A stretch of DNA of 64,000 nucleotides, taken from NCBI GenBank assembly GCA_965249435.1, contig CBDFMC010000024.1:134588-198587 (forward strand). The letters are read 5' to 3'. This document shows, in pieces, positions 5,122 to 64,000 of the stretch. The translations under genes and the position numbers were made by a program. How positions within the stretch are numbered: the first letter of the stretch is position 1; every line of letters starts with the position of its first letter. This DNA comes from Lacipirellulaceae bacterium. Lineage in GTDB: Bacteria; Planctomycetota; Planctomycetia; Pirellulales; Lacipirellulaceae. A model generated the notes under the pieces. That model worked only from the letters and a program-made list of their open reading frames with translations. It searched no databases and was not told the origin of the DNA.

Positions 5122-5173
5122 CCGTATTTTCCTGACATCGGGGGAACGACCCTATTTTGCCCGTCCAAGTCGT

Positions 5174-5253
5174 AATTTCAGCCCCCGGCTTTGCCGGGGG
5201 GTTGCCGAAAATTCGAGTCCACACTGCTATCACCCCCCGGCAAAGCCGGGGGC
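5174..5253. repeat. Family A repeat, tight inverted pair with conserved spacer (GAAAATTCGAGTCCACACTGCTATCAC)
   Basis: The two Family A cores lie in opposite orientation. A near-identical unit is at 62333-62413. It sits between the pyrC start and the ppk stop. Confidence 0.85.
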
Positions 5254-5255
5254 TT

Positions 5256-12905: not shown

Positions 12906-12948
12906 ATTCAATCGGAGGCGGGGGGAAACACGGACAAGGATTCGCTTG

Positions 12949-13007
12949 TTAGCCGCCGGGCTTGTCCCGGTGCGCAAGAGTAGCGCCGGGACAAGCCCGG
13001 CGGCTAA
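12949..13007. repeat. Family B palindromic hairpin repeat
   Basis: TTAGCCGCCGGGCTTGTCCCGGTGCGCAAGAGTAGCGCCGGGACAAGCCCGGCGGCTAA. It lies between the ftsH start and the MORN gene stop. Confidence 0.85.
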
Positions 13008-13031
13008 CTGCTCAATGCAAAATCAATCGAT

Positions 13032-21206: not shown

Positions 21207-22412
21207 ATGAAATACGCAATCATCATCCCTGACGGCGCAGCCGACGAGCCGCAGGACGAGCTCGACGGACGCACCCCGCTCGAAGCCGCCCACACCCCGG
21301 CGATGGATGCTTTAGCATCCAGGGGCGTAGTCGCCCGCGCATGCCACACCCCATCCAATCTCCCCGCCGGGTCGGAAGTGGGCAACATGAGCCTGCTAGG
21401 CTACAACCCGCAAACTAATTTCACCGGTCGGGCCCCGATCGAAGCAGCCGCCCAAGGCATTCAGCTTGCCCCCGAAGATTGGGCCATCCGTTGCAATTTG
21501 GTCACCATCGAAGACCAAACGATGCGCGATTTCACTGCGGGCCATATCTCGACCGAGGAAGCGACCGAGCTACTGGCCACCGCTCAAGAGGAATTGGGCG
21601 GCGACGGGCTAGAGTTCATTCCCGGAGTCAGCTATCGCAATCTGCTCCTCTGGCGCGGTGCCGAGCGGCCCGCTCCGTTCTCGATGGACATGCGAGCCAC
21701 CCCGCCGCACGATCTAACGGACAAATCGGTACTCAACGATTACCCCCGTGGCCCAGGTAGCGATGTGCTCAACGAACTGATGTCTGCCACGGCTTGCCTC
21801 TTCGCCGACCACCCCGTCAACAAAAAGCGAATCGCCGCAGGCCGTCTGCCGGCAACCAACGTATGGCTGTGGGGAATCGGCCGAGCACCGAAGCTGCAAC
21901 CCTTTGCCGAGGCCTATGGCCCGCAGGGGGCGATGCTAACCGCGGTCGATTTGCTGCGCGGCCTGGCGTCGCTCGTCGGCTGGCAGCGGATCGAAGTGCC
22001 CGGAGCCACGGGTTACACCGATACCGACTACGCTGCGAAGGGCCAGGTTGCAATCGACGCCCTGAACAAGCATGACTTGGTTTGTGTCCATATCGAGGCC
22101 CCCGACGAAGCCTCGCACGAAGGCGACTGCGCCGCAAAGGTGAAAGCCATCGAGGAGATCGACCGACACGTCGTCGCCCCGCTCGCCGAAGCGCTTCAGC
22201 GAACGGCGGAATGGCGTCTAATGATTTCCCCCGACCATCCAACCTTCCTCAAAACGAAAACCCACACCCATGGCAATGTCCCCGTTGCCATGGCAGGCAC
22301 TGGCATCGAACCGGACCAGTTCCAATCTTACGGCGACACCAATGCCGAAAAGTCGTCGCTTGCTTTCGACGAAGGCTGGCGAGTGATGGGCTGGTTTATT
22401 GGAAAAGATTGA
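21207..22412 (+). CDS. Cofactor-independent phosphoglycerate mutase homolog (archaeal apgM type) in a threonine-operon context; 'proposed homoserine kinase' family
   Basis: The N-terminus MKYAIIIPDGAADEP...GRTPLEAAHTPAMDALA is typical of apgM / metalloenzyme-superfamily proteins. The gene lies between hom and aspartokinase. Confidence 0.65.
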   Translation: MKYAIIIPDGAADEPQDELDGRTPLEAAHTPAMDALASRGVVARACHTPSNLPAGSEVGNMSLLGYNPQTNFTGRAPIEAAAQGIQLAPEDWAIRCNLVTIEDQTMRDFTAGHISTEEATELLATAQEELGGDGLEFIPGVSYRNLLLWRGAERPAPFSMDMRATPPHDLTDKSVLNDYPRGPGSDVLNELMSATACLFADHPVNKKRIAAGRLPATNVWLWGIGRAPKLQPFAEAYGPQGAMLTAVDLLRGLASLVGWQRIEVPGATGYTDTDYAAKGQVAIDALNKHDLVCVHIEAPDEASHEGDCAAKVKAIEEIDRHVVAPLAEALQRTAEWRLMISPDHPTFLKTKTHTHGNVPVAMAGTGIEPDQFQSYGDTNAEKSSLAFDEGWRVMGWFIGKD

Positions 22413-22606
22413 ACCACGGAGAAAGCAGAGGTACACGGAGTAAATTATTGGATTGAACTATGGCTGGCAAACAATCAAGTGCAAGCCAACCAAGAATCGA
22501 CTTATCGCCTGAGAATACATTTCCACATTTTACACAACCTCTGTGAACCTCTGCTTCCTCCGTGGTTCAATATTTTCGTAGAAACATAAACAAACTTGAT
22601 TTTGCA

Positions 22607-28634: not shown

Positions 28635-29039
28635 TTACCTTGGAGGCCTGGGGGCATCCTCTTCGCCTGCATGATCGCGTGGGATGATCGGCAAACGCCG
28701 TAGTCGAACCCTATGTTCGGTCACAGTGACAGCGGCACCGGCGAGAAGATCGTTTGTGTCGAGTAATTGCCGAATGATTCGTGCTACCGATTCACCTTTT
28801 AAGCCTTCGATGCGAATGCGAATAACTGATGGCATCGACGCATTCGATACGGCGAGCAACGCATGAAAGTCGGAATCGAGTGTAACCACCACGTCACCAC
28901 GAGCACATCCTTGCTCAAGGATCGTTTTGTCACTCGCAGCTTCCAGCCCTAAGGCGCCCACATGCTCCGATTCGATACCCATGTTTTTCAGATGCTGAGC
29001 CGCTGATCGTGGCAAACCCTGGTCAAGCAAGAATTTCAT
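28635..29039 (-). CDS. DUF5615-family PIN-like protein (toxin-like partner of DUF433)
   Basis: MKFLLDQGLP...GDVVVTLDSDF matches the DUF5615 consensus. It overlaps the DUF433 gene by 4 bp. Confidence 0.6.
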   Translation of the reverse strand: MKFLLDQGLPRSAAQHLKNMGIESEHVGALGLEAASDKTILEQGCARGDVVVTLDSDFHALLAVSNASMPSVIRIRIEGLKGESVARIIRQLLDTNDLLAGAAVTVTEHRVRLRRLPIIPRDHAGEEDAPRPPR

Positions 29040-29272
29040 GGCGTTTCATGAAGCTCCAGCACCTGATCGTCAAGGTTGGCAGCAGCATAGGCCAGGGCTT
29101 GGCGAATATCTTCCTCTTCTAGCTCAGGATACTCGGCAAATAGTTCATCTCGTTTGGGATGCGTTGCGATTGCTTCGAGTACCCGATGTACCGTCAATCG
29201 CATTCCTCGGATGCATGCCTGACCGTTCATCACGGCAGGATCGCACGTAATTCTGTCGATGGATGTGCTCAT
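29036..29272 (-). CDS. DUF433-family protein (antitoxin-like)
   Basis: ITCDPAVMNGQACIRGMRLTVHRVLEAIA...YPELEEEDIRQALAYA matches the DUF433 consensus. 78 aa. Confidence 0.65.
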   Translation of the reverse strand: MSTSIDRITCDPAVMNGQACIRGMRLTVHRVLEAIATHPKRDELFAEYPELEEEDIRQALAYAAANLDDQVLELHETP

Positions 29273-34350: not shown

Positions 34351-34463
34351 CACCCGAGAACCCGAAGTAGCTCAAATTCTGCTCTTGTCTATTGGCAAGG
34401 CATACCAGTACGATCCAGTGGGTCGACTTGGATCGAGTACCACAGATCACGCGAATTCAACGG

Positions 34464-34522
34464 TTAGCCGTCGGGCTTGTCCCGGCGCGCGATGACACCG
34501 CCGGGACTAACCCGACGGATAA
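34464..34522. repeat. Family B palindromic hairpin repeat (degenerate copy)
   Basis: TTAGCCGTCGGGCTTGTCCCGGCGCGCGATGACACCGCCGGGACTAACCCGACGGATAA. Confidence 0.7.
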
Positions 34523-34601
34523 CCAACTCCATTGCTTTCAGGATTTTGCCAGCACACCCTCCGCAGCCCCTGCTGCGAGTTCAGCGGAAAGGGATTCCCG
34601 C

Positions 34602-35687: not shown

Positions 35688-35811
35688 GGCGAGCGGCAAT
35701 AGAGAATTTATCAATCTTAACCCGACGCGTAAGCGAGGGAATTACCCCGTTATCCTCAGTCCCTCGCTTACGCATCGGGTTATCAAGGTAAGTTCTTAAC
35801 TGCCGCTCGCC
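35688..35811. repeat. Family C MITE-like element (terminal inverted repeats GGCGAGCGGCAAT / ATTGCCGCTCGCC with an internal hairpin)
   Basis: The inverted ends flank an internal palindrome (AACCCGACGCGTAAGCGAGGGA...TCCCTCGCTTACGCATCGGGTT). Related elements are at 44140-44251 and 62816-63062. It sits between lpxD and lpxI. Confidence 0.75.
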
Positions 35812-35829
35812 TAAGAAGGTGAAAAGATT

Positions 35830-36768
35830 TTGTGTACCGATATTCATTCACCAAGACGATCGACAATTAGCGGTGGTGATGTGCGTGCGGTCGCTGAGAA
35901 GTTACCCCCCATCGGCGTGCTCGCTGGATGGGGTCGGCTGCCATTTGCCGTAGCGGGCGCGCTGCACCGACAAGGCATCCCGGTTGCCGGCATCGGAGTT
36001 CGCGACCATGCCGATCCTCGATTTGCCGAACGATGCGATCACTTCGATTGGATCGGTGCTGGCAGTCTCGGTCGGGCGATTCGTCTCTTCAATCGTTGGG
36101 GCGTTTCCCGAGCGACGATGGTTGGTAAGATTCATAAAGCGATGTTCATGCAACCAAGATGGTGGATCCGTCATCGGCCCGATTGGAAAACTCTCCGGGC
36201 ATTCGCCCCTTACTTATTCACCGGCAGTAAAGATGGCAAAGATGATACGTTGCTTGGAATCGTGGTGGAATTGTTTGCATCTCACGGAATTGTGTTTGAA
36301 CCGGCAACCGATTTTGCACCGGAGCTACTCGTGAAAACAGGACAAGTCGCAGGTCGCCCCCTCTCGGCCAAACAGCAAAAGGACATCGAATTCGGCTGGC
36401 AGCTCGCCAAGCTCATGGGCGGACTCGACGTCGGACAAACCGTTTGTGTCAAAGATCAATTTGCACTCGCCATCGAAGCGGTCGAGGGAACCGACCTTTG
36501 TATTCAACGGGCGGGCCAATTTTGTGGCAGCGGCGGGTTCACGGTCGTCAAGGTTGCCAAGCCTCAACAAGATATGCGATTCGATGTGCCCACGGTAGGT
36601 GTAAAAACACTAGAGTCAATTGCTGCGGCCGGCGGCAACGTCTTGGTGATCGAAGCCGGTCGCACTATCTTGCTCGACGAGGAAGAGTTTCGCAATAAAG
36701 CGGTAAAGCTCAAAATTTCAGTCGTCGCTCACCTCAACATCATCCAAGCCAATGCCATAGTGCTTTGA
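35830..36768 (+). CDS. lpxI: UDP-2,3-diacylglucosamine hydrolase LpxI (DUF1009) (putative)
   Basis: The N-terminus IGVLAGWGRLPFAVAGAL and the C-terminus DMRFDVPTVG resemble the LpxI/DUF1009 family. It lies immediately downstream of lpxD. Confidence 0.55.
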   Translation: MCTDIHSPRRSTISGGDVRAVAEKLPPIGVLAGWGRLPFAVAGALHRQGIPVAGIGVRDHADPRFAERCDHFDWIGAGSLGRAIRLFNRWGVSRATMVGKIHKAMFMQPRWWIRHRPDWKTLRAFAPYLFTGSKDGKDDTLLGIVVELFASHGIVFEPATDFAPELLVKTGQVAGRPLSAKQQKDIEFGWQLAKLMGGLDVGQTVCVKDQFALAIEAVEGTDLCIQRAGQFCGSGGFTVVKVAKPQQDMRFDVPTVGVKTLESIAAAGGNVLVIEAGRTILLDEEEFRNKAVKLKISVVAHLNIIQANAIVL

Positions 36769-36903
36769 CCACCTCTTGGAATTTGCAATGGCAAAGCCGC
36801 AACCAAAATGTCAGATGCTTTTTTATCACCGCAGAGAGCGCAGAGGGCACAGAGGTCTTTTTCTAGGGATTTTCTCTGCGCTCTCCGCGTACTCCGTGGC
36901 TAA

Positions 36904-36968
36904 AAAATCTTTTGTGCCTTTTGGTGTTTTTTGTGGCTATTCTTCTTTGGTTGCGGCAATGGGCCGCA
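36904..36968. repeat. Family D conserved T-rich 65 bp element (second copy at 46358-46422)
   Basis: AAATCTTTTGTGCCTTTTGGTGTTTTTTGTGGCTATTCTTCTTTGGTTGCGGCAATGGGCCGC is essentially identical at both loci. Each copy is preceded by a different local hairpin followed by CCGTGGCTAAA. Confidence 0.8.
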
Positions 36969-36980
36969 CTGGACTCTTCG

Positions 36981-37016
36981 TGGTTCGTTTTTCTTCCATC
37001 CCGTGAACGGTTACCT
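36981..37016. repeat. Left copy of an inverted-repeat pair (GGTTCRTTTTTCTTCCATCCCGTGAACGGTTACC) that flanks the sigma-54 activator gene. The right copy is at 38481-38514.
   Basis: 34 nt near-perfect inverted copies about 1.46 kb apart, bracketing 37017-38480. Confidence 0.8.
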
Positions 37017-37481
37017 TCCCTTGTTGGTAGACCTGAGAGGCTAAATCGGCTTTCGCACATCGCATGGCTTATTCCTTTTTTTCAGGGGCTTCCGAAGGGG
37101 ACAATCTGCCAGCGACCATGCTCTCGTCGCAAGTCATTGCCACGCAATAACTTACGTCTTTTATGTGGCCTGGGGGATTCTTTCAAGGACGGCCTATTCG
37201 CTGTACTCCTCCTATTCGAATGCTCTCGGCAGAAACTAATTATTTGAGATAATCGGCGAGGTCGTGTATACTGAAGCCTGTGTAAGCGTTCAGCGGGTCA
37301 AGATAGTTTGTACCGTTGAAGGGGCCTCTACTGTTTGCGTCTACTTTTTACATGGCGGGACCGCTAGTGACTTAAAACCTCGGGCTTCTCTTTTTGCCAA
37401 GATCGCAATCCGCGAAGCCCAACAAAAAGGGCAAGATTGTCGTGCAAGCTATTGCGCAATGTCTTGCTCCGGAGCTGAGAA

Positions 37482-38478
37482 ATGGCTGCTATTGATACGA
37501 ATGAACCTTCTTCTTTGGAATCGCTGAGGTCGTTACCTCCAGACGATCCGTCTAGTCTTGTCGTTGGAAGTGATCCTGCGGTAAACCGGGTTGCACACCA
37601 TGCCCAGCGTGCTGCGCAGGTGGAATGCACCGTTCTGATTACCGGTGAGACCGGTACCGGGAAAAGAAATCTGGGCCCGAATGCTGCATCGGCTAGGCCC
37701 CCGACATGACAAGCCGTTTGTGCCCGTCAATTGTGCTGCGCTCACTGCCAGCTTGGCTGAGAGCCAGCTATTTGGCCATGAACGTGGCGCCTTTACCGGA
37801 GCCATGGGCGCCAGTTTGGGTGTGTTCCGTGCCGGAGACCGAGGAATCGTGTTTCTTGACGAAGTGGGCGACATGCCTCTGGATTTACAACCCAAGCTTC
37901 TACGTGTCTTGCAAGAAGGCGAAGTGACCCCGGTCGGTTCGGCAACTCCTGAGATAGTCGATGTCCAAGTCATCGCGGCCACGAATCGCGATCTATTGCA
38001 AGAAGTGCAAGAAGGACGCTTTCGAGAGGATTTGTACTATCGTCTCAATCTTATCGAACTAAACATGCCGCCGCTTAGAGAACGGACCGCGGACATCCCT
38101 TCATTTATTGATTATTTTTCGCGAAAATTTGCGAACCGTTACAACCAACCTCTATGGCAACCAGATGCCGAAAAACTGCGTGATTTCTGCGAATATCGCT
38201 GGCCTGGCAACATTCGGCAACTGAGCTATGTCATTGAGCAAGGGTACGTATTGGATTTCGAGCCAATGCTTCCCAATCGAGTCAATGGACCGCAATCGCG
38301 TATTGACCTGCCATTCACGGACCTCTCGCGATTACGAAAAGCAGCCCTGAAGCAAGCACTGCGCTCTACCAACGGCCACAAAGGAAGGGCTGCGAAGTTG
38401 CTTGGAATTCATCCAAACACCATGACGCGCCTATTAGCGCAGCAACACGATGACTGCCAAAACACCGATTCTGAATGA
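37482..38478 (+). pseudogene. Sigma-54-dependent transcriptional activator (AAA+ enhancer-binding protein with no receiver domain), frame broken at an A4 run (37662-37665)
   Basis: ORF 37482-37709 ends with Walker A GETGTGK and then runs out of frame. ORF 37645-38478 continues the family sequence ([26 protein letters not shown]...GAFTGA...[15 protein letters not shown]) through a C-terminal HTH. One extra A in GGGAAAAGAAATC explains the break. Confidence 0.75.
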
Positions 38479-38689
38479 TGAATTTTGGTAACCGTTCACG
38501 GGATGGAAGAAAAATGAACCACGAAGAGCACGAAGGACACAAAGAATAGAATTCTATTTTTTGAGAGGCTTTCCAATCAAGTCGATGAGGGTGCAAATTT
38601 AGCCTACTTTAAGGTGAAGAGAAGAAAACCACGAAAGAGAGGGCTTTGAGAATACTATTGGGCAAGTCTTTCCGCTTCAAATCCTGCGA

Positions 38690-38800
38690 TCTTACTTCCC
38701 TCACTTTTTTCGTGGTTTTCGTCTTCTTTCGTGGTTTTTCGTCTCTTTCGTGGTTTTCGTCTCTTTCGTGGTTTTCCTCTCTTTCGTGGTTTTCCTCCGA
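38690..38800. repeat. Tandem repeat, 18 nt unit (CGTCTCTTTCGTGGTTTT), about 5-6 copies
   Basis: Direct contiguous copies with no spacers, so it is not CRISPR. On the minus strand they lie inside ORF 38609-38890 and encode ENHER[DE] hexapeptide repeats in a His/Glu-rich 93 aa product. Confidence 0.85.
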
Positions 38801-40235
38801 ATGGGTTTTCCGTTTGAGTTCGCTGAGAAGCGAGAGCAAGCGATTTGGTCCTCTGACTTCTTCGTGCTCTTCGTGTCCTTCGTGGTTCAATATTTTTTAT
38901 TCCGTGAACGGCTACGAATTTTGATTCGATTGGATTGGTTGTTATTGGCTTGGTAGCGATCTCGGACCTTCTAGCAGTTGGTGTGTCTACCTGCCTTGGC
39001 TGCGGGCTCTGCTGCACTGGGAATTTTGGTTGCCTTCTCCAATCGCCTTTTTAACCGAACATAGCACTGCTAGCAGTCCATCAAAGCTTGTCACCAAAAT
39101 AGGGGCATTTACCTATTTTAGTGAAATCTTAACTTAGCCTTGCTTAGCCAGGGCTTTTCTCAATAGCCTTACTTTTCATCTCACCACTTTGGTGAAGTAG
39201 GCTCTTAGGCCCGAGCGGCAGATTCACCCCCTAAGCCCTTTTCCAGCATCGACTTACGCCGCATGGACAACCGATGATCTCTCTGGCATGTGAATCGCAT
39301 AAGGTGACTGGCAGTGCATTGCGCGCTATCGGGTGTTTGTCGAAGGGAAAGGGTCCCTGCGCTGGAGGCCTGGGCATCGCGAGATTGTGTCGGGGCGATG
39401 GTGTGCGGCAGTGCACGGTTGTCGGTGCTTGCACGATAGTGCAAGCAGACTAACTCGGCTTCAGTTCGGTGCTCGGACTTCGCGGAAGAAGGTTTTCGGG
39501 AATGGGCACAGTTGCTGAGGCAGAACGTTACTCAGTTTGGAAAAAAAGGAGAATCGATCAATGAGTCACAGTCCAAAATTATGAAAGTGCTGACCCGGAC
39601 TATGGTACTGAAGGTTTTCGTCGCGCAACGCCGGATAAATCATCCAAGCGGCGCCAACTAACGCATGGTCGTCGTCGCGGAAAGGCACCCCAGTCGGTCA
39701 ATGGAATTCATCGCCGTCGCAATCGAAAAATGGCATGGTAAAGAGTTTAGGCGATGGGTAACCGTTGGGCCTCTTCTCTTCTTTGCGCAGACTACGGTGT
39801 GCGCAGAGTAGATGGTTGCGGTCGGATGTGGTGCGCGCGTGTTGCACGTTACAAGGAAAGAAGGTGCGCACGCCATGAGCATGGTTTTTAGGCGCGATGT
39901 TGGCGTTTCGACTTCGCGGAGTACAGACGGTTTGTAAATACGGCAGCAGAGTGCCTTTTGGGGCTCCCTTGCGACCGGTGTGCTTGCGCGGTGCGTTATG
40001 CACTGATGGGTGCGCTTGAGTGGAATATGGAGGAGTGTAGAAAGGCAACTGTCCGGCACAAAAGAGACTGTCAGACAGTTGCTGAGTCGATAGGGCCGGT
40101 GACGGCGCTAGCTTGCGTGCGGATTTGATTCGTTCGTTGGACAATGGCTAGCGGAAGGGTAGCGGTCTGCGGCTTATTAGCAAAGGAGAAGGAAGAGGTG
40201 CTGGATGCGTGCGCGGGATTAATTGACATGACAAT

Positions 40236-40919
40236 TTGAGTGGTGACCTAGCGATGACAGCCTTGAGCACTACCGTAAGAATGCCGCCGTTGCCTGCTGG
40301 TGAGCACATGCAATGCGCCGTACGTGACTCGTCACTGGGAGTGATGCGTTGTGCAGTGGTATCGCCCTGTTCGGAGCGTCTGGAGGGCATTCGGTTAGCA
40401 GCCGAGCGGGAAGCTTGGGAAGCAATCGTCTGCAAGGACGCCAGCGCGATGCTCCGCTGTGTGTTTCGGGAGACTTTGCCACTGTCGATTGTCGACATGC
40501 CTCCTGCGGCTGGCGATGAGTATGAAGACTACCGTGCGATTGCCGAGCGGTTAAGTGAAATAGGTGGTAGCAACATGCTCTTGGTGGTCTGTGCTGACAC
40601 GGAAAGCGTTCAAGAGGAGATATGGGCCAGACAACTGGGGATTTGGAGCTACTTGCCGCTAGCTAATTTGTCGCCAAAGAACCTTACACTTCGATCTCCC
40701 AATGGGGCCCAGGCCCATGATGGAGCAGATACTGGATCAAAGATGCAAAGCGATAAGCAAGGACTAGCGCTCGTATTTGGCACGGCACGGAAAGCTTTGG
40801 AGAGAATCGCTTTGGCAAATGCCAATGCACCTGGGCAATGGGATCGGAGGGCGGCAGAAAACCTCCATTCCATCGGCTTCTCGGAAATAGAGACTGAAAA
40901 AAATGAAAAAGCAGGATGA
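40236..40919 (+). CDS. Hypothetical protein (possible degenerate receiver-like domain)
   Basis: 227 aa ORF in an otherwise ORF-poor region. It has a weak resemblance to the CheY fold (LSIVDMPPAAGDEYEDYRAIAERLSEIGGSNMLLVV). Confidence 0.3.
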   Translation: MSGDLAMTALSTTVRMPPLPAGEHMQCAVRDSSLGVMRCAVVSPCSERLEGIRLAAEREAWEAIVCKDASAMLRCVFRETLPLSIVDMPPAAGDEYEDYRAIAERLSEIGGSNMLLVVCADTESVQEEIWARQLGIWSYLPLANLSPKNLTLRSPNGAQAHDGADTGSKMQSDKQGLALVFGTARKALERIALANANAPGQWDRRAAENLHSIGFSEIETEKNEKAG

Positions 40920-41311
40920 AAATCTTGATAAAGATGTCGATAGAGTAGCGAACGAGCCAACTCGTCCCGTGCGATTGCGTGGATCAAAGCGCCCGTCTGT
41001 CGCAGGTCGCCGAAACGTTTGTCGCAAAAAAGGAAAGGAGAATGGAGGAATCCAGGAACGATGTAACAAGAGAATGAATTGGTAATGCTTGACAAATTAT
41101 ACAACCTATAACATGTCGTCGACTTCACTTCCGGAGTGATGAACACGGCAAGATTTTGGTCGGTCTTAATTGGTCTTTTGTCCTTACATTTAGTTAATTA
41201 GTTGGGTCGGTTTCCTTGTGACGTCAACGGCGGTTGAAACAACGGTTTCTTCAAGATCGTTTTATTGGCGTGATGAGATGGATTGACAAAACAACCTGAA
41301 AAGGAGAACTT

Positions 41312-42043
41312 TTGATGTTTGCACTCGTGAAAAACAGAGTTTGTTCCGCGGTTATTGTAGGAACCATTAGTTTTGCTGTGGGGGGAGGTTCCGCCCTGGC
41401 AGGCTTAGTTGGCTTGGATCCCAACTCATCCGATTCCGTGAAACTGTCCGATTTGCTCGACGATACCACGGATGGGGTTATCGTGGGCGATAAGATTTTT
41501 GATGGTTTCGTTTACTCGACGATCGGCGACATGCCCATGCCTGAAGATGTCAACGTGCTTGGCTTCACCGATTTAGATGGCAACTATGGCATTAGCTTCC
41601 ATGGTGCGTTTATTGACATGCCAGGCGGCGGGCCATCCGATGCGCTGATCCGATTTACGGTAGAAGTGGATGATGAGGCCCAAGCGAGAGGTTGGGTTAT
41701 TTCAGATGCCCATTTATCTATCGGCGGTATCGGCGTCGGCGACGACTCGGTATTCACCGTGGATGAATCCTTTGAAGGCAGCAACGAATCGCTCAGTGTG
41801 TTCGCCTCGACGCTGGGCCAAGGTGGCCAGTCACTATCTGATTGGACCTATTTTGTTCCCACCGTGACCAAGCTCCGCGTGTCGAAGGATATCTTTGCCC
41901 TTGCTGGTGAGAATGCGATTGTTCCTGCCAGGGCAACGGTGATTGATCAATCGTTCTCACAAGTGCCGGAGCCTGCCGCGTTGACGCTTTTGGCGATTTC
42001 TCTGGCGGGAGCTATGACAACGGCTCGACGTCGACAGGGTTGA
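41312..42043 (+). CDS. PEP-CTERM sorting-domain secreted protein
   Basis: A signal peptide, and the C-terminus VPEPAALTLLAISLAGAMTTARRRQG. Confidence 0.8.
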   Translation: MMFALVKNRVCSAVIVGTISFAVGGGSALAGLVGLDPNSSDSVKLSDLLDDTTDGVIVGDKIFDGFVYSTIGDMPMPEDVNVLGFTDLDGNYGISFHGAFIDMPGGGPSDALIRFTVEVDDEAQARGWVISDAHLSIGGIGVGDDSVFTVDESFEGSNESLSVFASTLGQGGQSLSDWTYFVPTVTKLRVSKDIFALAGENAIVPARATVIDQSFSQVPEPAALTLLAISLAGAMTTARRRQG

Positions 42044-44085: not shown

Positions 44086-44435
44086 ATTGAAGGGAACCGT
44101 ACCAACCCCGAGACAACTACCACGGGACTTTGCAATTTAGACGAGCGGTAGATAAGGACTTACCAGCACGCAGCGCAAGCAAGTGGGTCTCATGCACACA
44201 CTCGCTTGCGCGTCGTGCTAGTATTCTGGTAAATTTTCAATTGCCGCTCGCCTAACAGTCCTCCTTTCCAACAAGCAGAGCATTTCCACGAAGGCAACCC
44301 CCCGGCAAAGCCGGGGGCTTAAATGCTTTCCTCGAACGGTAGCCACTAAATTCCCTGAAGAACCTTTTTGTTGAAGAGAACCATATCAACCCCGGGAGAA
44401 CTACCACGGGTCTTTGCAATTGAGAGCCGCTTGCC
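44086..44435. repeat. Repeat cluster. An ~65 bp direct repeat sits at 44086-44150 and 44372-44435. A Family C element lies at 44140-44251, a Family A core at 44293-44324, and an AGCCACTAAATTCCCTGAAGAACC companion motif at 44341-44364.
   Basis: TTGAAGGGAACCGTACCAACCCCGAGACAACTACCACGGGACTTTGCAATTTAGACGAGCGG is nearly the same as TTGAAGAGAACCATATCAACCCCGGGAGAACTACCACGGGTCTTTGCAATTGAGAGCCGC. Confidence 0.8.
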
Positions 44436-45226: not shown

Positions 45227-45328
45227 GGGGACATTCTAATGGGATGAACCGGCAGAAGATACCTGACCACAATTTCAGCCCTCGGCTTTGCGGGGGATAG
45301 CGACGGCCGTGACAGCTTAGCTATGGGC

Positions 45329-46078: not shown

Positions 46079-46492
46079 AGTTTTTCCACTGCTTTTGAAA
46101 GGATCGTAACACTTTAGCTAAATGCGGCGAATCAGAAAATCACCACAGAGAACACCGAGGTCACGGAGATTCTATCACTCCTTTCAATGGATGGGCAGCT
46201 AGAATTTATTTTCCTCTGTAAGACAAACCCGTAAAAGCTTGTTGTTTTGACACTCTTTTTGAAAAGCCACGGATTGAACACGGATGAAACAGGGATAACA
46301 AGAAGATTTTTCTATGCCAAAGTTATCAATTTATCCGTGTTCAATCCGTGGCTAAAGAAATCTTTTTGTGCCTTTTGGTGTTTTTTGTGGCTATTCTTCT
46401 TTGGTTGCGGCAATGGGCCGCGCTGTGTTCCTCCGTTTGCTCTGTGGTTAATCTTTCTAGGAACTGCTGTGATGGCTAGAGTGTTACAAAGG

Positions 46493-46524
46493 GGCAACCC
46501 CCCGGCAAAGCCGGGGGCTGAGAT
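46493..46524. repeat. Family A repeat core (solo copy)
   Basis: GGCAACCCCCCGGCAAAGCCGGGGGCTGAGAT. Confidence 0.85.
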
Positions 46525-46534
46525 TGGGAGGCGT

Positions 46535-50058: not shown

Positions 50059-50094
50059 GGATCATCTCCAGGAAATAAATAGTGTATTCGATTG

Positions 50095-50154
50095 TTAGCC
50101 GCCGGGCTTGCCCCGGCGTTGCGTCCACGCGCCGGGACAAGCCCGGTGGCTAAC
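50095..50154. repeat. Family B palindromic hairpin repeat
   Basis: TTAGCCGCCGGGCTTGCCCCGGCGTTGCGTCCACGCGCCGGGACAAGCCCGGTGGCTAA. It lies between the acyl carrier protein gene stop and the upstream synthase start. Confidence 0.85.
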
Positions 50155-51254: not shown

Positions 51255-51619
51255 CGTAACAATTTCCCTTTCTCTCTTGTTTGGGGCACGCTTTGACGTG
51301 CGAGTAAAAGCCTAATTTTAGGCTTTTTCTGTGTTAAATGAATACGCTCTTTTTCAATGATCGTTTAATGATCGTGCGTTACCGGAAGATTTTTCCACAG
51401 GGGAAGCTCGTCATCCTACCAAAGTTTCTTAGTATTGGCGAGTAGGCTGGAGCAAGGATCGCCGACAAGGCAGCTCTGGCGTTGTATTTCCAAGGAATCC
51501 GGTAACATGGCGAGCGGTGGGCGGCTAGCGCATAAAAAAACGGCTCCTTGCTAGTGTTGCAAGGAACCGTTGGATTCTCGTGCTGGAGACGAACTCTCCA
51601 TGCGTTATTCTTGGGGCAT

Positions 51620-52105
51620 TCAGCCACCGCAACCACAGCTAGGGGCGCAACCACAGCTGGCTTCACAGCAGCATGCTTTGCGGGCAGCGCGACGGGCACG
51701 CAGTTTGGCAAACAGGCCACAGCGAGGCTTGCAGCAAGGGTCGCAGCAGCAGTCGCTCGCGCAACCACAACTTGGTTCACAGGCGTCGGCGCAACCACAG
51801 CTTGCTTCACAGCAGGCGCTGGCACATCGGCATGCCTTGCGGGCAGCGCGACGGGCACGCATTTTGGCAAACAAGCCACAACGAGGCTTGCAGCAGGGGT
51901 CGCAGCAGCAGTCGCTTGCGCAACCACAGCTTGGCTCACAGGCGTCGGCACAACCACAACTGGGCTCGCAGGCGTCCGCACATCCACAGCTGGGCTCGCA
52001 GCAACTGCGACGGAACAGTCCGCCAAACGCATTCGCGTCCGAGGCACTGCTCAGTGCAATGACGACACTGAGGCCCAGCATCGAAAGAAGTAAGTGACGT
52101 TTCAT
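51620..52105 (-). CDS. Secreted cysteine-rich tandem-repeat protein (metallothionein-like composition)
   Basis: Signal peptide MKRHLLLSMLGLSVVIALSSA, followed by repeats CEPSCGCADA/CASDCCCDPCCKPRCGLFAK[ML]RARRAARKAC. About 25% Cys. Overlapping ORFs in other frames and strands (51379-52047, 51548-52093, 51570-52097) are repeat artefacts. Confidence 0.55.
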   Translation of the reverse strand: MKRHLLLSMLGLSVVIALSSASDANAFGGLFRRSCCEPSCGCADACEPSCGCADACEPSCGCASDCCCDPCCKPRCGLFAKMRARRAARKACRCASACCEASCGCADACEPSCGCASDCCCDPCCKPRCGLFAKLRARRAARKACCCEASCGCAPSCGCGG

Positions 52106-55445: not shown

Positions 55446-55804
55446 TCACGTTGGCGCTTGGGCATGAACGACGTATTCAAACAACTCTTTCTTCGAATTC
55501 CGTTTCCTGATGACTTCCCAGCCGCAGCTTTCAAATCCTACGTCTTCAAAAAGTGCCACATAGATTTCTTCGACGGGCAAGAGTGTGTCGTAAAATTTTG
55601 AGTTGCCTACGATGTAGAAGCACTGTGCGCCTGGTGCAACAACTTTTCGCAGGCTTTGCAAATGAACCTTGACGTCGTCAAAGTACTTGTGAACGTAGCG
55701 GCCTAGGACATCGCGCTCTGCGGAGATCGCTCGAACAAGAGAATCGAATTTGCGATACGCGATTTGACCATTGGTCGGCTGCCACTTGCTTAGGTTGCTT
55801 GTCG
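55446..55804 (-). pseudogene. 3' portion of the DNA methyltransferase coding sequence, displaced by the IS66 insertion
   Basis: Reading the minus strand from 55804 down continues the frame of the methyltransferase ORF exactly (...GGTWGCATS | NLSKWQRTNGQIAYRKF...) once the IS66 element and its 8 bp duplication are removed. It ends at the stop at 55446. Confidence 0.65.
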
Positions 55805-58543
55805 GTTAGCGCTCTGTGAACTCCGTCATGCCAGGAGCGTAATTCAGATCTTGACAAGCCGACGTCGTGAAGCACGCCTCTGGCGGCGGCGCTGGTTGGC
55901 CTGATCAAGTTCGCGCTGGCGATCTTCGCTGCGATGCTCAGGGTGTGCCTTGAGCCATCGGTCAGGTAGCAGCTCGGAGAGCTGTTCACGCTGGTCCCTT
56001 GAAAGCGATTCGAACGGGGTTTGGGCGTCGCCCACCCGCAAGTACTCGGGAACGATCTGAGGAAGCCGGACGAGAACATCGTTGAGATACGGGGTGACGT
56101 GGACATGATTAGAACGAGCACTCTGGATAAGCGTGTACCAGACGCATGCCGCGCGACCACCCGCATCGCTCCCAAAAAATTGGTAATTTTTTCTTCCAAT
56201 AACCGAGGGGCGAATGACTCTTTCTGCCATGTTGTTATCGATCGCATAGCGCCCGTCGGTTGCAAATCGCGTCATCGCGTTCCAACGATTGAGCAGGTAG
56301 CCGATCGCTTCGGCCAACTTGGTCGAAGGCCGTACCGTCGGCTGCACTTCGGTGAGACGATCGTGCAGAAGGGCAAGAATGGGAACCGACTCGCGCATGC
56401 GCACTTGTCGTCGCGTTTCCACATCGGTATCGGCCAGGCGATCCTCGATGTCGTACAGTTGCCAGATCCAAGCGAGCGCCTCGTGCGCAAGTGGCTGCGT
56501 TGAGACGGCGCACGCTTCGTCGAACTTCCGCCGCGCATGGGCCCAACAACCCAGATCCAGAAGTCGGCCATCCGATTCCTTGACTAGGGACGTGTAGACA
56601 CTGTAACCGTCGGTTAATAATCCGCCTTGAAAATCATCAAGTATTTCCCGCGGACCTGCGCGGGATCGATCAAGTCGATAGTCAAATAGTTGGTACGGAT
56701 GCTGGTCATCGCCAACGTAGACCCAGAGATAAACCAGCTTGGTCGCCCCAGCCCCGGGACGCAGGACACGGGCCGTGGTCTCGTCGGCCCGTACATAAAA
56801 ACTATCCAGTACTTGGGTGCGAATCAGATCCCACACCGGCAGCAGACGCTCGCCCGTTCGCACCACGGCGTTGCTCAACACGCTGCGGTTGAACCACATC
56901 GTGGTGGTGGAACGAAGCTCTTCCTGGAGACGATACAGGGGCAGGTGACGCTCGAACTTGGCGTGTGCCAGCCAGGCTAACGTGCTGGCCCCAAATATCC
57001 CTTTTTCGTTGATATTGGGTGGCTTTTCGCTGGTGACGATCTGCTGGCCATCCCGGCTAACAGGGCAACCGTAGGTAAACCGAACGTGCTCGGCGATGTA
57101 GGCGCTAGACTCAACATATTCTAGTTGCCGTGAGATCTGCTCGGAGATCACCGTCCGCTTGCCGCCACATCCACAAGGACAATCGAGTTCTTCCGGCGGC
57201 AGTGGGTGTTCAAAACGCTGGACCGGCAAGCACTCGGGGAATTCAAAACGTTTGCGCTTCTTACGGCGTTTCTTGCGTTTCGAAGACGATTCATCGTCTG
57301 GCTCTTCTTCGTCGGTCGCCTCGTCATCCTCGCTAATCTCGTTGCCCTCGATCGACTCGGGATCAAAAAGAAGCTTTTGATCGGGAGAAGGGATAAACCG
57401 TTCACGCCGTGGAGAAAAGAGTGCCTTACGGAGTAAGGTGATTTGCTCTTGCATCACCTCGATGTGATTCTGCAACGATTCAAGAGTTGCCTGTTGCTCG
57501 CTATTAACCCTTTTGAGATGTGCGATCTCGGCGCGCTGCACTTCGATCTCTTTTCGGAGTTTGTCGGATTCCATCGACAACGTTTCGGTCCTTGAAGGTG
57601 CGTCACGAAATGGCAAATGATCACACACCGTTGGTGTAGAACACACATGTTTATTTATCGACAATTCACGTTGCGCGTCAAGGTGGTTTCCAAGGCGATT
57701 GAGTAATTTGTTTTGCCTGCTCACGACGCCACCACTTGCGACGTTTGACACTCGATAGCTCGATGCCTTCCAGCAACAATCGCAGGTCGTCCACATGCAG
57801 TGTCAAGTAATCACCGGGGGATGCAATCGCCCCTCCATGGTCGGCGCCACGTAGTGTCTCGGACGTTCCTCGTTCAAGATGCTTGTAGAGGATGATCGTG
57901 CCGTCACCCGTGAAATAGAGTACCTTCAACCGGTTGCGGCGTCGGTTGAAAAACAAGAAAAGATCTCCGTCTTCAATCTGTTTGCCAAGCTCCTTTTCGA
58001 CGATACCGATTAATCCACAAAAACTTTTACGCATGTCCGTGGGAGCCAACGCGGCGAAGACTTTTATTTGGGATGGCACAATCAACATGACGCCACCTCA
58101 CGCAACGCCTGCAATACGTCCTTCACTGTCTCACAATCGGTGCCGTGAGGCACATCCACAAAGACTCCCTGCTGCGGCAAGTGAATACGCAGCGTGGACG
58201 CAGGTGTCGTCCCCTCGATCCGCACAGGCACCAGTTGGGTGCCCTGGACGGCGTTACGACTGGTTTTAAGAGACTTGGTCGAACGGCTCCCCTGCTCTGG
58301 GGAGGCTTGCTGCTCACGGAACTTACGCTGCCAGGCATAATAGCTGGTTTGTGTAATCGAGTTCTGGTGGCAAAACGCCGCGATGCTCAAGCCGCTTGAG
58401 GACTGCTGTTTCAGTAGGCCACGCCAGTGGGACTCTTGGGATTTGTTTCGATTGGTCATTGTGCTCGTTCCTGGAATAAAGGGAATGGTTCACCTCTATT
58501 AGGATAGCGCGCAATTTTGGGACGCTGTTCACAGAACGCTTAC
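55805..58543 (-). mobile_element. IS66-family insertion sequence (about 2.74 kb) with an 8 bp target site duplication GCTTGTCG
   Basis: Terminal inverted repeats GTTAGCGCTCTGTGAAC (55806-55822) and GTTCACAGAACGCTTAC (58527-58543). The direct repeat GCTTGTCG lies at 55797-55804 and 58544-58551. It carries three ORFs: tnpC 55844-57796 (650 aa, CPCGCGG zinc-finger plus DDE), tnpB 57678-58088 (136 aa, IS66 Orf2-like), and tnpA 58082-58459 (125 aa, IS66 Orf1-like). Confidence 0.85.
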
Positions 58544-59491
58544 GCTTGTCGCGCAGCCCCAAGTCCCACCAATTGCCTGCCAGTCCATTTCGCCCGCCTG
58601 TCGTCCATCGGAGAGAAAACCCAACCAGTACATATAGGGTCGCAGTTCACGGATGTAGCTCATTCGGTTGGGGTAGGGCGGGGAAGTGATGACCTTCGTA
58701 TACTTGTGATCTTTCGGAAGCGACCTGTCAAGATTGCGAGAATCACCCAGGAACACTTTGCCATCCACATTTGGAGCATCGGCCACGACACTTGCCGCGA
58801 TTTCATCGACGGCCTCGTGGAATTGACGGAAAACGTCATTCTTGCGATCTCTGGCTTTTTCCGCGTCGAATAATAACCGCTGCTTGCTCGGCGGCTTCGA
58901 CTTTTTGAACGACATAGATTGATGACCAAAGCTGGCGTTCGATGTCGCAATCATCACCTTGCAAAACGCGACTTGTAGTAAATCTCGAATGTCATCGCTC
59001 GCCGTCGATTTCCGGATGCCATCAAATAAGTGTGACAAGGCCGATAGAGTTTCCTGATCCCACCATTTTTCTATCTGGTGCAGGTTGGGAGTCCACGTCG
59101 CATCCCAATTCCGCCGCCGCCGCAGATTGCCGAGAATTCGTCGTGCTTCTTCTTGGAACTGGATGTCGAATCCGTCAGAAAAGCGAGTGAGTTTCAAGTT
59201 TCCCAACCAGACCAGAAATGGGTTGATATCGACCGAGTGCGCGGTAACGCCTTGGATGGTGCTTGCCAGCGGTGTGGTTGCGGTACCGGAAAACGGGTCT
59301 AAGGCAAGTTCATCTGGCGCAGCTTGTTGGAGAATTTCGTTCACAACGTGCAGGGAATACGCGGGCGTTAGACGTAGCCAGCCATGCCGCCCTGTCTTGA
59401 CATTGCCCCGAAACGTCAGATGAGCCCGTTGACGTTTGTGTCTGCCGGATTGTTCATCTGCTCGCAGTTGCCCGATCACTGGTTGATTCAT
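58529..59491 (-). CDS. N6/N4 DNA methyltransferase domain; motif X/I then motif IV order (gamma-like). The 3' end is replaced by IS66 sequence.
   Basis: WLRLTPAYSLHVVNEIL...LDPFSGTATT (motif X and motif I) and VITSPPYPN (motif IV). The last 4 codons and the stop come from the IS66 terminal repeat. This may be the methyltransferase domain of the MmeI-like gene. Confidence 0.7.
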   Translation of the reverse strand: MNQPVIGQLRADEQSGRHKRQRAHLTFRGNVKTGRHGWLRLTPAYSLHVVNEILQQAAPDELALDPFSGTATTPLASTIQGVTAHSVDINPFLVWLGNLKLTRFSDGFDIQFQEEARRILGNLRRRRNWDATWTPNLHQIEKWWDQETLSALSHLFDGIRKSTASDDIRDLLQVAFCKVMIATSNASFGHQSMSFKKSKPPSKQRLLFDAEKARDRKNDVFRQFHEAVDEIAASVVADAPNVDGKVFLGDSRNLDRSLPKDHKYTKVITSPPYPNRMSYIRELRPYMYWLGFLSDGRQAGEMDWQAIGGTWGCATSVSVL

Positions 59492-60081
59492 TGCAGCAGA
59501 GCCTCCGTGATCGACTCGATTTTCTCTCGGATGCGGTCGGAATTGCGTTCGAAGAATCCCGCCAAGTCGTAACCCAATACTTCACGGCTGAAAGCGTAAG
59601 TGGACACCAGCGACGATCCCTTGAGCATTCCCGTCAACATGACCCATTGAGCGCGCGTGTACCGTTCGGCGATGTCGTCGTCGATCTGACTCGACAGTAG
59701 CACAATGACAGGAAGGTACGAGTTGGCGTAAGCGTTCGCCGCGTTACCGATGTCAGCGTTTTGCCGTTTTGCATCTTTGCTTTTGTAGCCTTGTCGAATC
59801 TCAAAGACCGAACCCTGTAACGAGTGGATGACTGGCTTCGCCACGTGGACCGAAGCAGCGGCATCATGGAGCCACTGTCGAACGTGATCGGCCTTCTTCG
59901 CGTTGGAGATGTCGCCGAGCGAAATCCGTCCATCCAGGGAGAGCGTTCGCTGCCGTCCACTGGGAGCAGGCACCATGTAAGACCATTTCGCCTGCTCGTC
60001 ATTCAAGCCAAGCGTGTCTTGCAGAATCTGACGAAACAGCCTTTCGCATGAGATGCCGATCTGGCGATAAATTGACGTCAT
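59488..60081 (-). CDS. Hypothetical protein. Either the helical-linker part of a frameshifted MmeI-like gene or a separate restriction-endonuclease candidate.
   Basis: 197 aa ORF that overlaps the methyltransferase start by 4 bp. No recognised motif. Its frame differs from both neighbouring fragments. Confidence 0.35.
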   Translation of the reverse strand: MTSIYRQIGISCERLFRQILQDTLGLNDEQAKWSYMVPAPSGRQRTLSLDGRISLGDISNAKKADHVRQWLHDAAASVHVAKPVIHSLQGSVFEIRQGYKSKDAKRQNADIGNAANAYANSYLPVIVLLSSQIDDDIAERYTRAQWVMLTGMLKGSSLVSTYAFSREVLGYDLAGFFERNSDRIREKIESITEALLQ

Positions 60082-60319
60082 TTCCTCCGGCCGCTTTGTG
60101 CGCAGCGTAGATCAACGGAGAATCGAGCCCAAACCACGTGTAAAACGGGTCACTCTGATAGAGCGATTGGAATTCATCAAATGTCAGCCCCGCCTTGGCA
60201 CGTTTTCCAAACTTGGGCTTATAGTTACGACAAATCGATAGTGCGTTATCGATGATTGCAAAATATCGATCGTCTTGCTTTGCTTTCTTGGCCATTGATA
60301 ATGGGAATCCATAGTACAT
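59999..60319 (-). pseudogene. Fragment in the same frame as the MmeI-like nuclease domain, separated from it by an in-frame TAG
   Basis: It is in frame with 60368-60961. The only intervening stop is the TAG at 60368-60370. Confidence 0.4.
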
Positions 60320-62042: not shown

Positions 62043-62332
62043 CACTGGTTGGGTCCTCGGCGAGGCAGAGCAATGCGGCAAGAGGCAGGCAAGAGAGCTG
62101 TGGCGCCCTTGCCCACGAGGGTGGCGCCGGCGGGGGGGCGTGCCACTACGGGTGTTATCGGCTCTAGGGCTTGTAGCGGATTAACGGAATGCGGAATACG
62201 GAACAGCCGTGCCGCAACGCGGCACACGGCAAGGAATGCGGGATGAGGGATTCCAGACCTTGGGTTTCCGTGCTAGACTGCCCTCCTCGAATGCTAGCAC
62301 TCAATAAACGAGGGTGTTCGGGAATTACGAAT

Positions 62333-62413
62333 GAAAGCCCTCGGCTTTGCCGGGGGGTTGCCGAGAATTCGAGTCTACACTGCTACCACCCCCCGGCAAA
62401 GCCGGGGGCTTCC
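62333..62413. repeat. Family A repeat, tight inverted pair with conserved spacer (the same unit as 5174-5253)
   Basis: GAAAGCCCTCGGCTTTGCCGGGGGGTTGCCGAGAATTCGAGTCTACACTGCTACCACCCCCCGGCAAAGCCGGGGGCTTCCA. Confidence 0.85.
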
Positions 62414-62462
62414 ATGGAAACAATTCCCAGACACCCTCAATTAAACTGGAGATCTTCCGGCT

Positions 62463-62798
62463 GTGTCAGACCCTGTAAAACTCTATGATCAGGCCGACGC
62501 TCTCAAGGAGCAAGGCAAACTGGACGAGGCGGTCGCTAAGCTCAACGAGGCGTTGGCTATCGATGGAAATTACGCGCTGGCCCACTCCGCGCTGGCTATT
62601 CTATTGCAGAAACTGGGCAAGAATGAAGAGGCGGTCCAACATGCTCAGCGTGTTTGCGAGTTGGAGCCAAGCGACCCGTTCAGCTACACATCCATGAGCG
62701 TTATCTGCCAACGCGTTTATGCCGGCACGCAAAATACGGAATTTATCCGTCTGGCCGAGGAAGCAATGGAACGCAGCCGACAATTGGCACAAGGATGA
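62463..62798 (+). CDS. Small TPR-repeat protein
   Basis: TPR-like helical repeats (AVAKLNEALAIDGNYALAHSALAILLQKLGKNEEAVQHAQRVCELEP). 111 aa. Confidence 0.6.
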   Translation: MSDPVKLYDQADALKEQGKLDEAVAKLNEALAIDGNYALAHSALAILLQKLGKNEEAVQHAQRVCELEPSDPFSYTSMSVICQRVYAGTQNTEFIRLAEEAMERSRQLAQG

Positions 62799-62815
62799 AA
62801 AGCTGTTAGCGATTA

Positions 62816-63062
62816 GGCGAGCGGCAATTGAAAATTTACCAGAATACTAGCACGACGCGCAAGCAAGTGTGTGCTAGACCCACTTGCTTGCGCTGCGTGC
62901 TGGTAATTTTTAATCTGCAGCCCACCTAGTGCTTGGTGGGAATCTCTAATAATTGCCGCATAAGCAGCTAGCAGTGTGTTTGCGCTCGGCATTCACGCAG
63001 CTAGCTTTGCCGAAAATTGAATTATTAGAGGTACCCTGGTAAATACTCATCTGCCGCTCGCC
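62816..63062. repeat. Family C MITE-like element (about 247 bp) with terminal inverted repeats GGCGAGCGGCAAT / TGCCGCTCGCC and flanking direct repeats
   Basis: Its ends match 35688-35811 and 44140-44251. Its interior carries the hairpin ACCAGAATACTAGCACGACGCGCAAGCAAGTG...CACTTGCTTGCGCTGCGTGCTGGTA. The flanking sequence GCTGTTAGCGATTA(G) is directly repeated at 62802-62815 and 63065-63080. Confidence 0.75.
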
Positions 63063-63137
63063 TTAGCTGTTAGCGATTAGCCAGAAAGGGAAGACGGAAG
63101 CTGCTGTGTATTTTTTGGCTAACCGCTAATTGCTTCC

Positions 63138-63566: not shown

Positions 63567-63674
63567 CGCAAGCCGGCCCTATCGTGCCAGCGTGTAAAGA
63601 AGCAGTTTACAACAAAACAGGCAGCGGTGCCATGGGCCTGGAAGAAGAATGACCTGGGTGAACTGCAAAGTCGC

Positions 63675-63810
63675 AATTTCAGCCCCCGGCTTTGCCGGGG
63701 GGTTGCGGAACGATCACCGTCTCTACCAAGCATGGCTTTTCCCTGAGAGCATTTTCCCAAAAGCAACAATTTCCCGAAGGCAACCCCCCGGCAAAGCCGG
63801 GGGCTGAAAT
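63675..63810. repeat. Family A composite repeat, inverted pair with a ~72 bp spacer (the same arrangement as 3499-3635)
   Basis: Reverse core at 63675-63706 and forward core at 63779-63810. The spacer shares CCAMCAAGCAGAGCATTTCC-like sequence with the other loci. The companion motif AGCCACTCAATTCCCTGAAGAACC follows at 63843-63866. Confidence 0.85.
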
Positions 63811-64000
63811 GAGGCTTCTTCATTGCAACAGTCAGCAATAGCCACTCAATTCCCTGAAGAACCTGTTTTTCATTGGTCATTGGTCATTTTCCTTTTGTCG
63901 AACACTCAGAATCACACTCTCGCCCCCCGTCCCCGGCATGGGATAGGTAGCCGCCTTGCGGAGTTGAAGCGCCTTAAGCAAACCGCGACGACGCGCCTCG

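Follow-up and report, generated by a model that had tools for sequence, protein, structure and literature searches.

The 64,000-nucleotide (nt) stretch of a Lacipirellulaceae bacterium analysed here (assembly GCA_965249435.1, contig CBDFMC010000024.1, positions 134,588 to 198,587; hereafter the window) carries, with housekeeping genes as its neighbours, a plus-strand gene at 37482-38478 for a stand-alone sigma-54 enhancer-binding protein of PspF-like layout (AAA+ plus HTH_8). This gene, hereafter the activator gene, is broken by a +1 frameshift and enclosed by inverted repeats. A preliminary description had suggested that the arrangement could be a mobile cassette, an invertible or phase-variable switch, or a regulator in the course of being lost. 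The inverted repeat is real, but it is longer than the 34 nt first reported: its arms at 36974-37015 and 38487-38528 span 42 nt, are complementary at 41 of 42 positions and lie 1471 nt apart. The 34-mer itself falls at 36982-37015 and 38487-38520, the coordinates first given for its second arm being about 6 nt off; it was matched in none of 100 dinucleotide-preserving shuffles, and the window contains no other copy of it. The reuse of its CCGTGAACGG core in a second inverted pair, around an 18-nt tandem array, was borne out (pairs I2, I5 and I7), the third occurrence of the core lying at 38902-38911.

The element at the right-hand arm

[quoted passage not shown] Its terminal inverted repeats of about 60 nt (38488-38546 and 38858-38915) carry the tips GTAACCGTTCACGG and GTAGCCGTTCACGG. 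They are flanked by an 8-bp target-site duplication, GAATTTTG, the left copy of which (38480-38487) begins 2 nt past the activator stop codon and matches the right copy (38916-38923) at 8 of 8 positions. The element has no transposase gene, and the open reading frames (ORFs) called across it are repeat sequence. Within it lies a nested hairpin insert (about 38559-38827) containing the 18-nt tandem array, which has 4.7 copies (38708-38794, plus strand) and pairs with 38617-38642. A search of 36000-41500 with Rfam at a permissive E-value found no family match.

Related copies were found in another genome. A pattern across two conserved boxes of the arms, scanned against a collection of one genome per species in which the source genome is evidently not included, matched three contigs of another Planctomycetota metagenome-assembled genome, M_MetaBat.130. 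Two of these loci hold complete 202-nt elements with 95% mutual identity, and the third contig holds half an element. The two complete copies lie on different contigs beside unrelated genes: that in locus L004 (429-630) follows an unrelated ORF and is flanked by AGGCTTGG and AGGCTTGG (8 of 8), while that in locus L003 (158-359) is flanked by GGATTTTC and GAATTTTC (7 of 8). Both the ends of the 202-nt elements and part of their interior (…GCAAGCGATTTG…) align with 38488-38915, and the element in the window is 428 nt rather than 202 nt long because of its nested hairpin insert. Long hairpin folds are obtained for copies of the element (z = -5.3 and -9.6), the second value being that of the element in the window (-167 kcal/mol).

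Because of the long inverted repeats, the target-site duplications, the small size, the lack of coding capacity and the dispersed copies, we hold it very probable that the inverted repeats are the terminal repeats of a small, dispersed, non-autonomous element, a MITE, beside an old, fixed chromosomal gene. On this reading the complete MITE inserted just beyond the activator stop codon and duplicated the 8-bp target GAATTTTG, and the predicted empty site reads …TGATGAATTTTGATTCGATT…. Thus the part of the preliminary description that assigned the repeats to a non-autonomous mobile element stands, while the part that made the gene its cargo does not. The copies elsewhere mark the repeat as one of a set of dispersed copies unrelated to this gene, a finding that the preliminary description had itself named as one that would refute it.

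A candidate source of mobility lies in the same window. At 55805-58543 (minus strand) there is an intact IS66-family insertion sequence (IS) with orfA, TnpB_IS66 and a full-length DDE_Tnp_IS66. The earlier statement that no recombinase or transposase lies nearby therefore holds within about 17 kb of the activator gene but not for the window as a whole. The inverted repeats of this IS66 (GTAAGCGTTCTGTGAAC and GTTAGCGCTCTGTGAAC) begin with GTAAGCGTTC, which is of the canonical GTAAGCG type, and are bounded by an exact 8-bp duplication, GCTTGTCG. The IS interrupts an ORF, leaving flanks at 55446-55804 and 58544-59581, and once the IS and one copy of the duplication are taken out, a frame of 462 codons is recovered that includes a TSPPY motif and resembles that of a DNA methyltransferase. 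Inverted repeats starting with GTAAGCG, together with 8-bp direct repeats, are a hallmark of IS66 (PMC11946415). The MITE has the tips GTAACCG and GTAGCCG and 8-bp duplications, and its tip GTAACCGTTC is identical to that of the resident IS66 at 9 of 10 positions. From the GTAA tips, the 8-bp duplications and the presence of an intact IS66 in the window we infer IS66-type mobilisation, in which an IS66-family transposase acting in trans would move the MITE and the resident IS66 would be a candidate source of that transposase.

A different origin for such repeats has to be weighed, namely that they are repetitive extragenic palindromic (REP) or REPIN-type sequences moved by RAYT, a tyrosine transposase, or hairpins that stabilise or terminate RNA, and not an IS66-type MITE. 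REP-like palindromes have been reported in Planctomycetes, and the REP superfamilies are defined by GTAG or CGTC tags (PMC3733652). Short dispersed palindromes are abundant in the window as well, and at two loci the copies of the element start 7-9 nt past a stop codon, as would suit a hairpin at the 3' end of a transcript. However, the tips here read GTAAC rather than GTAG or CGTC, and the element measures about 200 nt, with terminal repeats of about 60 nt each. Moreover, 8-bp target-site duplications at three copies point to DDE-type insertion, by cut-and-paste or copy-paste. To our knowledge, REPINs produce no target-site duplications. We therefore regard a REP, REPIN or purely RNA-level identity as unlikely, while a hairpin function at the level of the host is compatible with a MITE origin.

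The left-hand arm is a solo end of the same element type, again of the left type (36974-37014, minus strand). It shares 41 of 42 positions with the left end of the complete MITE, is matched on the minus strand by positions 1-39 of an nhmmer profile of the MITE, and has its GTAACC tip at 37014 (minus strand), facing the gene. A partner end, an upstream core motif and a target-site duplication were searched for at this arm and none was found. The solo end sits in an upstream spacer that is a patchwork of other dispersed palindromic repeats. It adjoins a dispersed 62-nt module (36910-36971, plus strand) with a second occurrence, at 98% identity, at 46364-46425; there the module is followed by another hairpin arm. 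Beyond the module is a hairpin-type intergenic repeat with 9-nt-periodic arms of the CGCAGAGAG type (36826-36908; pair I16, 36830-36845 and 36874-36889, 94%). The latter belongs to the mosaic of repeats occupying the spacer between lpxI and the activator gene, and the same architecture recurs at 46138-46460.

The orientation of the ends bears directly on the suggestion that the two repeats delimit a composite or non-autonomous element which carries the activator gene as cargo, the gene and the repeats moving together. Repeats derived from a mobile element do lie on both sides of this single gene. The polarity of the GTAACC... tips is, however, fixed by the 8-bp target-site duplications, and the tips at 37014 and 38488 both face the gene, which therefore lies between two insertions and outside both elements. 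This inward geometry by itself contradicts the cargo reading. In addition, the right-hand element possesses a complete pair of ends and is flanked by a target-site duplication of its own, no duplication surrounds the unit 36974-38528, the left arm has no outer end, and in related loci the gene is syntenic without the repeats. It is thus extremely improbable that the gene travelled as cargo.

Some observations weigh against the MITE interpretation or parts of it. The MITE end GTAACCGTTCACGGGAT and the IS66 end GTAAGCGTTCTGTGAAC agree at 9 of their first 10 positions and then diverge. Metagenomes scanned for a degenerate pattern of the ends had 0 matches, and the window holds one full copy and one solo end, both beside the activator gene only. 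Furthermore, the two inward-facing ends (41/42) are more alike than are the MITE's own two ends. We attribute this to a conserved asymmetry, since the left type (…GGGATGGAAGAAAAA…) and the right type (…GGAATGAAAAAGG…) are consistently distinct in both genomes; a recent local event may be an alternative source of the 41/42 likeness.

In the literature searched there was no specific description of an IS66-type MITE, or of a repeat of this kind in Planctomycetes, and as far as that literature goes the MITE is new and uncharacterised. As now defined, the family combines a 202-nt core with tips of IS66 type, duplications of 8 bp and a conserved left/right asymmetry, and it occurs in at least two Planctomycetota genomes. 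Its recognition helps annotation, given that these repeats otherwise yield spurious 'HEEHE'-type ORFs and break assemblies.

The activator gene and its chromosomal setting

As given, the activator gene has no uninterrupted frame: the codons for the Walker A motif (GETGTGK|E) contain an extra A, in a run of four (37662-37665, plus strand), and the first frame consequently stops after 75 codons. Deletion of one A from this run yields a 331-amino-acid (aa) protein with no receiver domain, and the domain content of this repaired product agrees with the stand-alone architecture first proposed: Sigma54_activat (PF00158; 2.2e-65, residues 28-193), AAA_lid_14 (PF25601) and HTH_8 (PF02954), with the GAFTGA loop encoded at 37786-37803. 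The split by an extra A was likewise upheld, as the closest relative (L005, a marine metagenome contig; 88% aa identity) reads GGGAAAGAAATC, that is, A3 at the run where the window has A4. The best 120 homologues listed are 70-88% identical, 319-349 aa long and of the same stand-alone architecture, except for the source assembly's own truncated call of 265 aa, and the few named ones among them come from Pirellulales or Lacipirellulaceae-like organisms. None of the NCBIfam equivalog models reaches its cut-off against the activator, the PspF model TIGR02974 scoring 234 bits against a cut-off of 443.55. Hence the activator is PspF-like in layout but not a member of the PspF family.

Seven related loci were fetched, including that of the cultured Lacipirellula parvula. 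The genes lpxD-lpxI lie upstream of the activator gene in five of the seven (L001, L007, L008, L010 and L011), and a downstream unit is kept in five of the seven (L001, L006, L009, L010 and L011) in the order 59-aa ORF, ORF of about 170-270 aa, usually a second small ORF, a PEP-CTERM-type protein and trpC. Gene orientations in these loci are those of the window. The repeat core was found in none of the loci screened (L001 and L005-L009), and the arm motif TGAACCAC was found in none of the same six. By this comparison of gene order the activator gene is ancestral, in a fixed slot after lpxD-lpxI in Lacipirellulaceae-like relatives. A false lead is thereby disposed of: in a planctomycete genome rich in repeats, inverted repeats on either side of a gene do not make it a cassette.

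Upstream of the gene lies a sigma-70-type promoter, TTGAGA-N17-TATACT (37244-37272, plus strand), which matches the consensus at 10 of 12 positions and is situated inside the repeat-bracketed segment. In an alignment of the upstream spacers of five loci (A1) both hexamers are conserved, whereas the left arm falls in a non-conserved part of the spacer. Downstream of the promoter, in a leader of about 210 nt, the motif GGACCGCTAGTGAC (37358-37371, plus strand) is invariant in all five aligned loci and could be an operator or an RNA element.

This arrangement also speaks to the proposal that the 42-nt inverted repeats make the 1.47-kb segment invertible, by homologous or site-specific recombination, as a DNA switch. 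Near-perfect 42-nt repeats 1471 nt apart could in principle support rare RecA-dependent inversion. However, the conserved promoter and leader are inside the segment, and as promoter and gene both lie between the repeats, an inversion would move them together and switch nothing. No invertase or recombinase was found within about 17 kb of the activator gene, which counts further against inversion; related loci that include lpxD-lpxI or the downstream unit all show the gene in the orientation seen here with respect to them; the assembly shows the ancestral orientation only; and the repeats are those of transposable-element ends with target-site duplications. An invertible switch is accordingly highly unlikely, and we think it very unlikely that the inward MITE ends serve as a recombination substrate that flips or excises the activator unit, as a sigma-54 regulon switch, with the frameshifts described below being real and selected inactivations.

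A search for sigma-54 promoters (GG-N10-GC) in the region downstream, which the preliminary description had advised, brought to light a conserved -24/-12 element, GGCATGTGAATCGCA, at 39285-39299 (plus strand), 276 nt upstream of a small ORF. The pattern GGCA[TC]G-N4-T[CT]GC[AT] recurs in the same relative position in each of the six loci spanning this region, 147-296 nt upstream of the small ORF. Further upstream are a palindrome resembling an upstream activator site (TCACCAAAATAGG...CCTATTTTAGTGA, 39091-39124), which forms a conserved block in alignment A3, and a second palindrome, CACCA-N4-TGGTGA (39182-39195), about 90-175 nt upstream of the -24/-12 promoter. The latter follows the exact pattern in five of six loci, with a diverged version at the aligned position in L009. 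The small ORF itself (39561-39741, plus strand) encodes a conserved arginine-rich protein of 59 aa (MSHxQxYE...NGIHRRRNRKMxW) and has a +1 insertion after codon 4 in the window. The conserved unit as a whole spans 39091-39741 in the window, L001:11375-11915, L006:2503-3083, L009:2254-2692, L010:9318-9819 and L011:9464-10008.

On the grounds of position and conservation we propose that the activator would drive the -24/-12 promoter of the 59-aa ORF, which is its likely target. Neither the small ORFs nor a 227-aa ORF had a Pfam or NCBIfam family match. Between the ORF of about 170-270 aa and the PEP-CTERM gene there is another small basic ORF, a paralogue of the first (40903-41085 in the window; L009:3886-4074, L010:10732-10914 and L011:11039-11239). 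In relatives it ends in GGIHQR.N…, and the copy in the window reads GGIQERCNKRMNW, without the otherwise conserved His. These features together delineate a Lacipirellulaceae regulatory unit made up of a stand-alone sigma-54 activator, palindromes, a -24/-12 promoter, 59-aa arginine-rich proteins and a PEP-CTERM protein.

The two frameshifts

The activator gene and the 59-aa ORF, neighbours that we regard as functionally linked, each have a +1 insertion relative to their relatives. In the small ORF the window reads ATGAGTCACAGT-C-CAAAAT, with the CC at 39573-39574, where L001 and L006 have ATGAGTCACAG(T/A)CAAGA(T/C) and L009 has ATGAGTCACAAACAAGAT. Both frameshifts are probably real, recent loss-of-function mutations in one module that are unrelated to the repeats. 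The suggestion that a regulator is being lost thus remains live as far as the frameshift is concerned, but such loss would be independent of the inverted repeats. If the frameshifts are real, the genome is a natural double knockout of the activator/small-ORF unit.

The competing explanation, that both are sequencing or assembly errors, with the activator and small ORF intact and only the MITE insertions real, is the less likely of the two. The window contains 42.9 kb of uninterrupted ORFs of at least 250 codons, in which there are 572 homopolymer runs of at least four, and the neighbouring housekeeping genes match their Pfam domains at full length; such large, full-length genes indicate that the assembly is not error-prone. 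Two random indels within about 1.2 kb, in two linked neighbouring genes, would be improbable. In the small ORF, moreover, removal of a C is the more parsimonious repair, as it keeps a Q that is invariant in five relatives, and this is not a homopolymer event. There is also another real disruption in the genome, the IS66 within the methyltransferase-like ORF. Overlapping same-strand ORF pairs were screened for more frameshifts, and those with Pfam matches proved to be separate genes (the DUF5615 gene and the three IS66 ORFs), while the pairs at 58529-60111 and 62177-62798 were left ambiguous.

Other observations favour error and so weigh against real decay. The check on long ORFs is partly circular, as it counts only ORFs that are long. 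Either frameshift can be removed by taking one A from an AAAA run, the signature of a systematic homopolymer miscall. Apart from this one site the repaired activator is conserved throughout; it bears no additional lesion and shows neither accelerated nor relaxed evolution (4 lineage-unique substitutions, compared with 4-13 in relatives). Additionally, a metagenome scan across the activator frameshift that allowed either A3 or A4 gave 0 matches and no conspecific sequence, and no independent sequence of the same species confirms either frameshift. On balance, recent decay is somewhat more likely than error.

A regulatory role for the A-run has next to no probability, whether by slipped-strand phase variation or by programmed +1 recoding, either of which would tune production of the activator. 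The shift does fall in a homopolymer, and AAA-AGA would allow re-pairing on AAA in the P site. However, the run is only four bases long, relatives have A3 with an uninterrupted frame, and no slippery context surrounds the small ORF's own frameshift. Homopolymer tracts of contingency loci are typically at least seven nucleotides long, and the phase variation that had been suggested at this run is thus unlikely on account of tract length. Programmed +1 frameshifting at AAA-AGA was considered as a separate candidate and rejected, being absent from all relatives and the second frameshift lacking such a context.

Repeat background and comparison with known systems

Within the window there are 76 inverted pairs 22 nt or more in length, together with several families of dispersed palindromes, and in so repeat-rich a setting a gene between repeat copies of opposite orientation is unremarkable. 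A palindromic repeat, GGCAACCCCCCGGCAAAGCCGGGGGCTGAAAT, has about a dozen copies, in either orientation and often arranged REPIN-like, as pairs that face each other at a distance of 70-80 nt (3495-3636, 5171-5259, 44293-44324, 45268-45296, 46493-46529, 62327-62415 and 63672-63811). A 68-nt hairpin family (GTTAGCCGCCGGGCTTGCCCCGGCG…CGCCGGGGCAAGCCCGGCGGCTAAC) has four copies (331-398, 12941-13008, 34456-34523 and 50087-50154), one of which lies a short way upstream of what is probably lpxD's true start. A 62-nt inverted pair (44194-44255 and 62813-62874), 98% complementary and 18.6 kb apart, belongs to another dispersed family with further members at 35780-35812 and 63031-63063.

Units with a 9-nt period (CACGAAGNN, CACGGAGNN, CACAGAGNN and CGCAGAGNG) build the arms of several hairpin elements, usually beside TGAACCAC. 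Such arms lie at 36826-36908, at 38507-38546 and 38858-38897, in the related hairpin elements at 22394-22585 and 46138-46460, and at L002:6060-6100; in translation they give spurious 'HEEHE' or 'FVVF' ORFs, for example at 38609-38890. These hairpin elements look like one superfamily with exchangeable modules. Elsewhere in the window, tandem repeats at 51672-52013 (period 159 nt, 2.2 copies, 83%, with an internal period of 30 nt) fall within a minus-strand ORF (51379-52050), which suggests that this ORF encodes a repetitive protein. A small DUF5615/PIN-like gene (28635-29045, minus strand), which may be toxin-like, lies directly upstream of valS and overlaps the stop-to-stop frame of valS.

The activator shares with PspF a GAFTGA-containing AAA+ domain and a C-terminal HTH in a protein of about 325 aa with no receiver or sensor domain, as well as a position adjoining a sigma-54-type promoter with upstream palindromes. 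It differs in scoring below the PspF model cut-off, in having no identified pspA-like partner, and in its proposed target, a 59-aa arginine-rich ORF followed by a PEP-CTERM protein. In common with invertons of the fim/hin type, the locus has inverted repeats around a segment of about 1.5 kb, but there is no dedicated recombinase within about 17 kb, promoter and gene are both inside, and the repeats are transposon ends. The REP, REPIN and BIME mosaics of Proteobacteria are also intergenic palindromic units that often lie just past stop codons, form mosaics and coexist as several families in one genome; the element described here is set apart by its target-site duplications, the absence of a GTAG/CGTC tag and a much longer unit. 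Like bacterial MITEs derived from insertion sequences, it is about 200 nt long and non-coding, with long terminal inverted repeats and dispersed intergenic copies. An IS66-type MITE in particular is suggested by the GTAA tips, the 8-bp duplication and the intact canonical IS66 in the same window, whereas the resemblance of the repeats to the resident IS66 is confined to their first 10 or so nt, the arms, built of 9-nt-periodic CACGAAG-like units, are unusually long, and a consistent difference between left and right ends is kept across species.

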